DNA of 64,000 nucleotides from positions 1 through 64,000 of the forward strand of contig JAOUEV010000004.1 in NCBI GenBank assembly GCA_029858565.1, written 5' to 3'. This DNA is from Nitrospirota bacterium. GTDB lineage: Bacteria; Nitrospirota; UBA9217. The stretch's first letter is position 1; every line of letters starts with the position of its first letter. Position numbers and translations under genes: made by a program. Below, one piece after another: positions 10,058 to 11,877 of the stretch. The notes under the pieces were generated by a model. That model saw only the letters and a list, made by a program, of their open reading frames with translations, was not told where the DNA came from and did no database searches.

Positions 10058-10366
10058 ATGAACAAATTCAAACTGCGGCTGTACATCACCGGCAAGACGC
10101 CGAAATCGGAGCGGGCCATAGCGAACCTGGAGGACATCTGCAAAAGGGAGCTGGAGGGGCTCTATGAACTGCAGATCATCGACGTGCTGGAGCATCCGCA
10201 GCTGGCGGAGGAAGAAAAGATCCTCGCCACGCCGACCCTGATCAAGGACCTGCCGCCGCCGCTCAAACGGATCATCGGCGACCTGTCGAATGCGGAAAAG
10301 GTCCTGCTCGGGCTCGATCTCATGCCCGCGGAAAACGGCACGAAGCGGAAGGAGGGGAAGCAATGA
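10058..10366 (+). CDS. kaiB: Circadian clock protein KaiB homologue
   Basis: [70 protein letters not shown]. Confidence 0.97.
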
Positions 10367-11877
10367 CGGCAATCAACGAGCATAGGTTTGTCGAAAAAAC
10401 CGAAACCGGCATCGAGGGTTTCGACATGATAAGCGAGGGAGGGCTGCCCAAGGGCCGCACCACGCTGATTGCAGGCACCTCGGGAAGCGCCAAGACCGTC
10501 TTTGCCGTCCAGTTTCTCAGTGAAGGGATCGTAAAGAATGACGAGGCGGGCGTATTCGTCACCTTTGAAGAGCCGCCCGACGATATCCGGAAGAATGTCA
10601 TGTCACTTGGCTGGAACGTGGCGGATTGGGAGCAGGAGGGGAAGTGGGCCTTTGTGGACGCCTCGCCCCAGCCCGGAGAGAGCGATGTCATAGCAGGGGA
10701 ATACGACCTGAGCGCGCTCCTTGCGCGTATCGAACATGCGGTGCGCAAAACAGGCGCCACGCGGTTGAGCATGGATTCACTGGGCGCCATGTTCGGACGT
10801 TTCAGCGATGCAGGGCTGGTGCGGAGCGAGCTCTTTAAGATCGCCTCCGCGATAAAACAGATGGGCGTGACCGGCATCATCACCGCGGAGCGCACCGAGG
10901 AGTATGGCGAGGTGGCGCGGTTCGGCATCGAGGAGTTCGTCGCCGACAACGTGATCATCTTGCGGAATGTGCTGGAATCGGAAAAAAGACGCCGTACCAT
11001 GGAGATCCTCAAGTTCCGCGGCACAAGCCACCAGAAGGGGGAATACCCTTTTACGGTGATCAAGGACGTCGGCATCGTGGCCATCCCGCTCTCCGGGATA
11101 GAGCTGAAACAGCGCTCTTCCACGGTGCGCATCAGCTCCGGCAATAGCGAACTGGACAATATGTGCGGCGGCGGCTTTTTCCGCGATTCGATCATCCTGG
11201 TGTCAGGCGCAACAGGCTGCGGCAAGACCATGCTTTCCGCCGAGTTTGCCGGAGACGCCGCACGGAACGGGCAAAAAGCCCTGATACTGGCCTTTGAAGA
11301 AAGCAGGGAGCAGCTCTTCCGAAACGCAAGCGGCTGGGGCATAGACTTTGAACAGATGGAGAACGACGGGGCGCTCAAGGTGGTTTGCCAGTATCCGGAA
11401 ACCCAGGGACTGGAAGACCATCTCATCAACATAAAGCACACCATACTGGACTTCAGGCCCAACCGGGTCGTCGTGGACTCTCTCTCTGCGTTGGAGCGCG
11501 TCTCCACGATAAAAGGGTTCCGGGAATTCGTCATAGCCCTGACCTCGTTTATCAAACACCAGGAGATCGCCGGGCTCTTTACGTCCACAACCGGCGAACT
11601 CATGGGCGGGACCTCGGTCACGGAAGCGCACATTTCGACCATTACCGACACCATCATCCTCCTGCGCTACGTGGAGATGTTCGGAGAGATGCGGCGCGGC
11701 ATCACGGCGCTCAAGATGCGCGGCTCCATGCATGACAAGGACATCCGCGAATTCAACATCGACGGCAAAGGCATGCATATCGGCAAGGCATTTAAAAACG
11801 TCACCGGCATACTCTCCGGCCATCCCAAGTTCAGCACGACCGAAGAGGTGGACCGGATCTCGGAACTGTTCAAGTAG
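10363..11877 (+). CDS. kaiC: Double-domain circadian clock ATPase/kinase KaiC homologue
   Basis: Two RecA-like domains: Walker A GTSGSAKT and [11 protein letters not shown] pairs, KFRG/KMRG, phosphosite motif HISTITD, A-loop-like GILSGHP. Confidence 0.97.

Follow-up and report, generated by a model that had tools for sequence, protein, structure and literature searches.

A KaiA3-KaiB3-KaiC3-type cassette with a PAS-headed activator in a Nitrospirota genome, a probable three-protein phosphorylation timer

To our knowledge, three-protein Kai oscillators have been reconstituted from cyanobacteria only. The genes considered here are a kaiB-kaiC pair and, directly upstream of it, a gene for a PAS-domain protein with a KaiA3-like C-terminal domain, all from a bacterium assigned to Nitrospirota (assembly GCA_029858565.1). 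They lie within the window, the whole stretch of DNA that was analyzed (64,000 nucleotides, positions 1 to 64,000 of contig JAOUEV010000004.1); coordinates refer to the window, and features are on the plus strand unless otherwise stated. The locus probably encodes a KaiA3-KaiB3-KaiC3-type (group III) phosphorylation timer of three proteins, in which the activator takes its input through a PAS domain instead of a receiver domain; the reasons are a KaiC3-type KaiC, a KaiA3-family domain encoded upstream, and a conserved gene order.

Systems of the KaiA3B3C3 kind are already known. As described by Koebler et al. (2024; PMC11372060), KaiA3 consists of a NarL-like receiver domain and a KaiA-like C-terminus and is encoded upstream of kaiB3(-kaiC3); these authors state that the KaiA fold is otherwise known from RsbU alone, and they include Roseiflexus among the holders of kaiA3B3C3. 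In the same account, KaiA3 of Synechocystis stimulates phosphorylation of KaiC3, and KaiA3, KaiB3 and KaiC3 together give a damped cycle of ~24 h in vitro (PMC11372060). Reports place the type in 15 species of cyanobacteria and in five further genera. The group-III KaiC proteins of Synechocystis and Cyanothece 51142 are reported to oscillate with their own KaiB and KaiA3 (PMC12081879), and an ATP hydrolysis rate of 8.5 per monomer per day is given for Synechocystis KaiC3 (PMC6989803).

The window locus resembles the sets from Synechocystis sp. PCC 6803 (PMC11372060) and Cyanothece 51142 (PMC12081879) in its gene order (activator, kaiB, kaiC), in the clade of its KaiC, and in the family of its activator C-domain; identity of that family with KaiA3 rests on the Crocosphaera and Roseiflexus loci and on the descriptions in those papers rather than on Synechocystis sequences. 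It differs from the Synechocystis system in the N-terminus of the activator, which is PAS here and a NarL-like receiver with a phospho-accepting aspartate there; in its position inside a run of chemotaxis (che) and cyclic di-GMP (c-di-GMP) genes, with a sensor kinase as the next gene; and in its host, which bears dsrA and, having no canonical KaiABC, offers no second oscillator for coupling. In the open-access literature no description was found of a PAS-headed activator of KaiA3 type, of a KaiA3-type cassette in a dsr-bearing, Thermodesulfobacteriota-like genome, or of how widely the cassette, with its input heads swapped, is spread over phyla, although supplementary lists may hold such homologues or loci.

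KaiC, KaiB and their oscillator-type residues

The kaiB gene (10058..10366; 102 amino acids) starts with ATG, is preceded by the ribosome-binding site GAGGAGG, and overlaps kaiC (10363..11877; 504 amino acids) by 4 nt; both genes are intact. KaiB was identified by Pfam, NCBIfam, and alignment to PDB chains, and is of KaiB3 type by context. It scores 105.3 bits against Pfam KaiB PF07689 (cut-off 27) and 119.7 bits against NF006798 (cut-off 110); its 112.1 bits against TIGR02654 are below the cut-off of 145.3. KaiC contains two KaiC-ATPase stretches (RecA-like domains) and exceeds the curated equivalog cut-offs of both NF006799 (726.3 bits; cut-off 408) and TIGR02655 (655.9 bits; cut-off 546.25).

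Several features are shared with the KaiABC proteins of Synechococcus elongatus PCC 7942. The KaiC is double-domain and carries a phosphosite triad (TEAHIST, 11620..11640) that is conserved in its clade; in alignment to solved KaiC chains T420 falls on T426, and S425/T426 fall on S431/T432. The Walker A lysines and the catalytic glutamate pairs are kept in both domains (K44-T45 and E69-E70 in CI; K288-T289 and E312-E313 in CII). KaiB has the glycine and aspartate associated with fold switching, G85/D87 aligning on G89/D91 of Thermosynechococcus KaiB. The window KaiC differs from that of S. elongatus in the CI Walker A motif (residues 38-45, 10474..10497), which reads G38-T-S-G-S-A43-K44-T45 where solved KaiC chains have GTSGTGKT; in the A-loop-like segment, where T481-G482 replace the E-R of KaiC1 NYERIISG (E487-R488), residues for the buried A-loop state; and in the C-terminal tail. 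An earlier, preliminary description of this DNA had reported the two ATPase domains, the ST phosphosite pair, an A-loop-like tail, and GTSGSAKT in CI, all of which are found where it placed them; its reading of KaiB as ending in EKVLLGLDL was mistaken, 14 further residues following GLDL.

The preliminary description had also called the KaiC KaiC3-like, and database comparisons bear this out. The best match in the PDB is 8zn5 (724 bits), a reconstructed ancestral KaiC-beta deposited by Mukaiyama et al. (2025; PMC12081879), while solved extant cyanobacterial KaiC chains score ~600 bits and the Rhodobacter KaiC 316 bits. A scan of one genome per species yielded 80 close relatives. The nearest, at 85-87% identity, belong to Syntrophales, Desulfatiglandales, Desulfobacteraceae, and metagenome-assembled genomes labelled "Deltaproteobacteria", followed by Roseiflexus (72-73%) and Crocosphaera/Cyanothece (68-71%). 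Crocosphaera watsonii WH 8501, whose genome is complete, provides a comparison within one organism: the KaiC encoded beside a Pfam-KaiA gene is 54% identical to the window KaiC, whereas a second KaiC encoded ~10 kb away, beside a gene combining a receiver (REC) domain with the activator domain discussed below, is 70-71% identical. Identity to 14 KaiC1 proteins (the C. watsonii copy and 13 KaiC proteins encoded beside Pfam-KaiA genes in other cyanobacterial genomes) is 53-56%.

A tree was built from 94 rows (the window KaiC, 79 relatives, and the 14 KaiC1 proteins; L035, which is partial, and L090, a duplicate, were excluded) by a quick LG+G4 search without bootstraps, with no KaiC2 outgroup and no Synechocystis sequence among the rows. 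A long branch with an SH-like approximate likelihood ratio (SH-aLRT) of 100 parts the 14 KaiC1 rows from the other 80, and the window KaiC groups with four Thermodesulfobacteriota rows, also with an SH-aLRT of 100. Sequence thus places the window KaiC in the KaiC3 (group III) type.

Two of the residue features singled out in that description are not diagnostic. The alanine before the CI Walker lysine had been put forward as a variant of this locus that may alter the ATPase rate. Among 96 compared rows, GTSGTGKT occurs in all 14 KaiC1 rows, and 75 of the 82 KaiC3-type rows have alanine or serine at this position (GTAGSAKT in 39, GTAGSSKT in 20, GTSGSAKT in 7, GSAGSAKT in 7, and other forms in 2), the remaining 7 having glycine. 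A locus-specific change was accordingly rejected; with alanine or serine in 75 of 82 rows, the residue is a signature common to most of the clade. Alanine or serine stands in each of the 26 cyanobacterial group-III rows, which represent 25 loci because L090 duplicates L029. Since two such systems oscillate and the Synechocystis KaiC3 ATPase is slow, the variant appears compatible with a slow CI ATPase, the P-loops of the two oscillating group-III proteins being known by clade only. The glycine-aspartate pair of KaiB, which the same description had taken as oscillator-type, is equally undiagnostic: KaiB1 has it, and so do the cassette KaiBs and four KaiBs adjoining KaiC2-like genes, that is, every KaiB type compared; because of the last of these it does not separate oscillator from hourglass types.

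The tail (residues 479-504 with the A-loop-like segment, 11797..11874) is a conserved feature of the clade and is presumed to be the docking site of a dimer of the KaiA3-like domain. Across 37 KaiC3-type sequences G482, I483, G486, and F503 never vary, and conservation of E495 and R498 is 90% or higher; the pattern NVTGILSG...E.(D/E)R...LF is shared with cyanobacterial group III. The replacement of E-R by T481-G482 fits the remark of Schmelling et al. (PMC5520375) that KaiC3 A-loops are without charged residues.

The PAS-headed activator and its C-terminal domain

The gene upstream of kaiB (8980..9891; 303 amino acids, GTG start) begins 19 nt after the cheD stop codon. PAS families match its first half, at residues ~20-135. 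There follow a coiled-coil and linker (..IEQLEEELRSL..LS..PQTSVTARMYG..; 9418..9525), which is predicted as a helix and then a stretch with a predicted local distance difference test (pLDDT) score below 50, and a C-terminal domain of ~110 residues, predicted to be a KaiA-like four-helix bundle (9526..9852; model residues 37-145). Within the linker, positions E14, S17, and T30 of a profile built from 12 short members of the C-terminal domain family (profile A1) are invariant or nearly so; a role of this segment in KaiB binding is speculation. The nearest solved PAS domains are a mixed group (unknown ligand, FixL/DosP heme, LOV; E 1e-9 to 1e-3), and the LOV cysteine motif, looked for by eye, is absent from the PAS domain.

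Sequence comparison ties the C-terminal domain to the group-III loci. BLASTP aligns it with the REC-containing protein that Crocosphaera encodes upstream of kaiB3-kaiC3, at 46% identity over 140 amino acids (E 2e-38), and the A1 profile matches the Roseiflexus and Crocosphaera proteins with E 1e-53 to 1e-57. The C-terminal 158 amino acids have 447 homologues in a 90%-clustered collection, with N-termini that are PAS, REC, GAF, or absent; receiver-headed homologues are often annotated "NarL/FixJ family response regulator". In a 50%-clustered library, 1,444 representative clusters match at E<=1e-3 and 1,038 at E<=1e-10, and among the 150 clusters listed it is always at the C-terminus that the domain lies. 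The source names for the family are 'PAS domain S-box protein', 'response regulator', and 'hypothetical protein' only. Large as it is, with at least 1,038 representative clusters at E<=1e-10, the family went unrecognized by Pfam in every protein scanned.

The predicted fold points in the same direction. An AlphaFold2 model of the domain has a mean pLDDT of 81.9, with values above 90 over residues 40-140. The top Foldseek matches are KaiA C-domains (1q6a, 5jwr, 1v2z, 1r8j, 4g86, and 5n8y; probability 0.95-1.00), and in VIA comparison seven of the eight best entries are KaiA, with Z 11.5 and a root-mean-square deviation of 2.6 Å over 101 residues for 1r8j. Alignment by hhalign to 14 canonical KaiA C-domains covers 97 columns with P 4.2e-4 and a probability of 34%, compared with P 0.05 and 19 columns for a reversed control, and places RL..LELMG.L.S.YR of the last helices on RLT.ID.LAHL.EMYR. 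When a homologue at 69% identity (P0038) was used to search Atlas features, KaiA-bearing clusters ranked first to third (0.90, 0.88, and 0.85); lower ranks included an RsbU_N cluster (rank 5, 0.83) and a cluster named "KaiA C-terminal domain-containing protein". None of the Atlas rows by structure for P0038 reached TM 0.5, and no family was named among them. The fold and profile lines are each modest and agree with one another and with synteny; the predicted fold of the domain is closest to the KaiA C-domain. The KaiA-like gene mentioned in the preliminary description, which lies upstream of kaiB, is thus of KaiA3 type in its C-terminal domain, by fold, BLASTP, and synteny.

A number of results weigh against this assignment. 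The last ~160 residues have no Pfam match, including KaiA PF07688 and RsbU_N, at E<=10, and Pfam KaiA, which defines canonical KaiA, has no match among 12 family members or among 53 full activator proteins. The single sequence has no sequence match in the PDB, and two profiles recover no KaiA chain there. The Foldseek E-values to the KaiA C-domains are just 0.1-0.6; the stressosome N-domain 3zta reaches a VIA Z of 11.0, and Z values below about 13 are, by the tool's own warning, common for helical bundles. The hhalign result is weak, a query of 327 rows giving the same register with a probability of 12% and P 0.0025. No receiver domain is found in the activator N-terminus, which PAS families alone match, and a receiver defines KaiA3; as the NarL-type receiver with its phospho-accepting aspartate is absent, the protein is called KaiA3-like here and not KaiA3. 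On the KaiC side, the KaiC3-type A-loops are without the charged residues that hold the KaiC1 A-loop buried, and cyanobacterial KaiC3 proteins are reported to autophosphorylate without KaiA (PMC5520375), so that the activator may matter less.

These same observations, namely the missing HMMER match to KaiA, bundle Z-scores in a range flagged as possibly generic, and KaiC3-type autophosphorylation without KaiA, would be expected if the kaiB-kaiC pair were a KaiA-independent hourglass, as in Rhodobacter or Prochlorococcus, and the PAS protein an unrelated neighbor with a helical bundle. This is very unlikely. The order domain gene, kaiB, kaiC on one strand recurs in 70 of 80 related loci from many phyla; the domain is 46% identical to a cyanobacterial KaiA3-type protein whose Synechocystis orthologue is reported to bind and activate KaiC3; and KaiA ranks first in two structure comparisons as well as in the Atlas feature search. 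The locus does resemble the Rhodobacter sphaeroides hourglass (PDB 8dba/8fwj; PMC10076222) in being a kaiB-kaiC pair from outside the cyanobacteria that has a signalling kinase close by, but it has a KaiA-like partner, its KaiC has no extended C-terminus (504 versus 568 amino acids), and that KaiC is far closer to cyanobacterial KaiC than to the Rhodobacter protein, as the scores above indicate. The domain likewise shares a helical-bundle fold class with the RsbU N-terminal domain (KaiA-RsbU superfamily) and is unlike RsbU in having no Pfam RsbU_N match, no attached PP2C phosphatase, and a kaiB-kaiC rather than an rsbT/rsbV context.

A relative from the same family has a bearing on both sides of this question. 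Genome G168 (locus L121, 1111-2973) has kaiB and a KaiC3-type gene, the latter 66% identical to the window kaiC, with a product that stops right after the A-loop. No KaiA3-like domain is encoded in the 1.1 kb upstream, as an hourglass pair would have it; the conserved KaiC tail is missing as well, however, and the joint absence of tail and activator neighbor fits a pairing of the two.

At the level of the genome, the three-protein reading is likewise favored. The host assembly (3.9 Mb, 144 contigs) is 100% complete by markers; Pfam KaiA has no match in it at E<=1, and it holds one KaiB-domain match and one double-domain KaiC. The locus therefore lacks, unlike S. elongatus, a SasA-like KaiB-domain kinase. 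The preliminary description had proposed a system of three proteins rather than a KaiA-less pair, and this is justified because the KaiC is KaiC3-like, a KaiA-like gene lies upstream, and there is no canonical KaiA.

Distribution of the cassette and its input heads

In the 70 related loci already mentioned, the activator-domain gene, detected with the A1 profile, immediately precedes kaiB-kaiC and shares its strand; kaiB is present in 72 of the 80. The 10 loci without the domain gene are L021, L088, and eight cyanobacterial loci in which an adjacent kaiB is also missing, one of them (L065) having only 128 nt of upstream sequence; a kaiC3 without an adjacent kaiB is described for Synechocystis. 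The cassette occurs in Thermodesulfobacteriota, Chloroflexota, Pseudomonadota, Nitrospinota, Verrucomicrobiota, Acidobacteriota, Planctomycetota, and Ignavibacteriota.

The N-termini of 53 of the 70 activators were scanned with Pfam, the other 17 being near-duplicates or open reading frames (ORFs) cut by contig ends. REC only was found in 32, REC with PAS in five, PAS only in 13, MEDS-GAF-PAS in one, and no domain in two; the Roseiflexus-labelled loci with a domain gene (five scanned) have the REC plus domain architecture. Among the more elaborate proteins are the MEDS-GAF-PAS activator of an Anaerolineae locus (L080:2589-4661), in which these domains precede the KaiA3-like domain, an activator with three PAS domains (L047), and two with REC plus two PAS domains (L054 and L064). 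When REC-first and PAS-first states are placed on the KaiC tree, at least seven changes are required over 50 labelled rows, from which it follows that the input head has been exchanged repeatedly. These loci show that the activator domain travels with kaiB-kaiC across phyla and that its sensor heads are interchangeable.

Closer to the host, the distribution is sparse. The activator domain was found in four of 201 sampled genomes of the phylum, the host's own included, and in none of 44 genomes of the family (at most 15 candidates scored per genome). Of the 46 family genomes compared, a KaiC3-type gene occurs in just one besides the host's, G168, and KaiC2-like genes (37-40% identity, products of 578-608 amino acids) occur in six. 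Because the spread is patchy, lateral acquisition of the cassette is suggested. Two of the same-family loci (L122 and L123), with KaiC2-like frames of 586-600 amino acids that are 38-39% identical, each have two adjacent kaiB copies.

Possible mechanism, output and neighboring genes

By analogy to the described systems, a dimer of the KaiA-like domain would bind the KaiC tail and A-loop, and this would raise CII autophosphorylation at T426 and S425. Slow ATP hydrolysis in CI would gate the binding of fold-switched KaiB, which would counteract the activator, allowing KaiC to dephosphorylate; the resulting cycle may be either sustained or damped. Activator strength would be tuned through the PAS domain by a redox, oxygen, or metabolite cue. 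The PAS-GAF histidine kinase encoded next to kaiC would sense the state of KaiC, with the signal passing to the GGDEF and HD-GYP-type enzymes of c-di-GMP metabolism and perhaps to the contiguous che genes.

The candidate output kinase (11924..14857) begins 46 nt after kaiC and consists of an atypical receiver, two PAS domains, GAF, HisKA, and HATPase; the receiver match is weak (19 bits, below cut-off), and a CikA-like docking of this receiver on the KaiB-KaiC complex is speculation. REC-bearing kinases also follow kaiC in several related loci. The window kinase is succeeded by a REC-REC-GGDEF response regulator of the diguanylate cyclase type (14881..16266; Pfam) and, as the last gene before a strong terminator-like hairpin with a 12-bp stem (20123-20151) that ends the co-directional run, by an HD_5/HD-domain protein (HD-GYP-like; 18564..19790). 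The gene after kaiC was scanned in 36 of 66 downstream ORFs, hand-picked with near-duplicates and short ORFs dropped: its product is a histidine kinase in 20 cases, another c-di-GMP enzyme in three, a PAS-only protein in two, and an unrelated protein in 11, the last mainly in cyanobacteria and Roseiflexus. Going by the genes after kaiC here and in the related loci, the state of KaiC is most likely read out through a two-component or c-di-GMP system.

This context is also what would be expected of a phospho-switch that does not keep time, in which a PAS cue would set KaiC phosphorylation, and KaiC, through KaiB and the kinase, would direct c-di-GMP and chemotaxis in environmental signalling or stress, with no intrinsic period. 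The switch is the main rival to the timer, possible but rather unlikely. In its favor are the position of the cassette inside a co-directional run of che, kinase, GGDEF, and HD-GYP-type genes, the signalling enzymes after kaiC in 25 of the 36 related loci scanned, and activator heads swapped among PAS, REC, GAF, and MEDS, as fits an input-driven device; a stress-response role of Legionella KaiC2 is moreover cited by Schmelling et al. (PMC5520375). On the other hand, KaiA3B3C3 of Synechocystis and Cyanothece 51142 are reported to cycle in vitro with periods of ~24 h, and all residues that the cycle is known to require are kept in the window proteins (T420, S425, T426, both Walker A lysines, and both glutamate pairs). 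A switch and a damped oscillator are, besides, not exclusive.

The host itself, a sediment bacterium that carries a sulfite reductase and appears to be non-photosynthetic, speaks for the switch and bears on whether a three-protein timer here would be a daily one. Its dsrA (contig C132 of the host genome, G000, positions 12185-14389) scores 563.8 bits (cut-off 392.85), and a second, weaker match to the dsrA model directly downstream (113.8 bits, below cut-off) is probably dsrB. The type-II reaction-centre protein (Photo_RC) has no match genome-wide, type-I centres not having been searched. With dsrA and no type-II reaction centre, a daily cue is not obvious. Two reports on group-III proteins also weigh against the timer: the KaiC3 ATPase of Synechocystis is not temperature-compensated (Q10 2.4; PMC6989803), and the KaiC of R. 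rubrum, the one non-cyanobacterial group-III protein assayed in that study, showed no rhythm, although its only partner there was the wrong KaiA, that of S. elongatus (PMC12081879).

It is a bold and improbable proposal that a non-phototrophic, sulfite- or sulfate-reducing sediment bacterium would possess a free-running, roughly daily oscillator, entrained through PAS by swings in redox or oxygen, that drives rhythmic c-di-GMP turnover and chemotaxis. Were it true, daily vertical migration or attachment along sediment gradients, for example, could follow, and the PAS, REC, GAF, and MEDS activators of many phyla would be the same clock with different inputs. The window locus, together with the 70 of 80 cassette loci, makes it possible to test directly, with three small soluble proteins plus ATP, whether Kai proteins serve as timekeepers in bacteria that do not photosynthesize.

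The run of genes that contains the cassette begins well upstream of it. The che genes (cheW, a cheY-like gene, cheB, REC, a 4HB-HAMP protein, cheA, cheC/X, and cheD; 2468..8960, identified by Pfam) look complete and lie directly upstream of the Kai cassette on the same strand. Downstream, a 764-amino-acid HEAT-repeat protein is encoded between the GGDEF regulator and the HD_5 protein. Promoter-like sites are not enriched (five found versus 4.6 expected), and a search of sequencing runs returned no RNA run carrying the stretch, the DNA runs listed being one that may be its source and one with a small share (0.05). At the window start, an open frame of 904 amino acids (1-2715), which runs off the edge, has no Pfam match at E<=1e-4 and overlaps both the start of cheW and another long frame (2-2425); it may be a spurious frame of GC-rich DNA or an unannotated large protein. 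Beyond the hairpin, glycogen/maltose-type genes (21775-26154) encode a GDE_C/GH100-like hydrolase, on the minus strand, and a GlgE-like maltosyltransferase.

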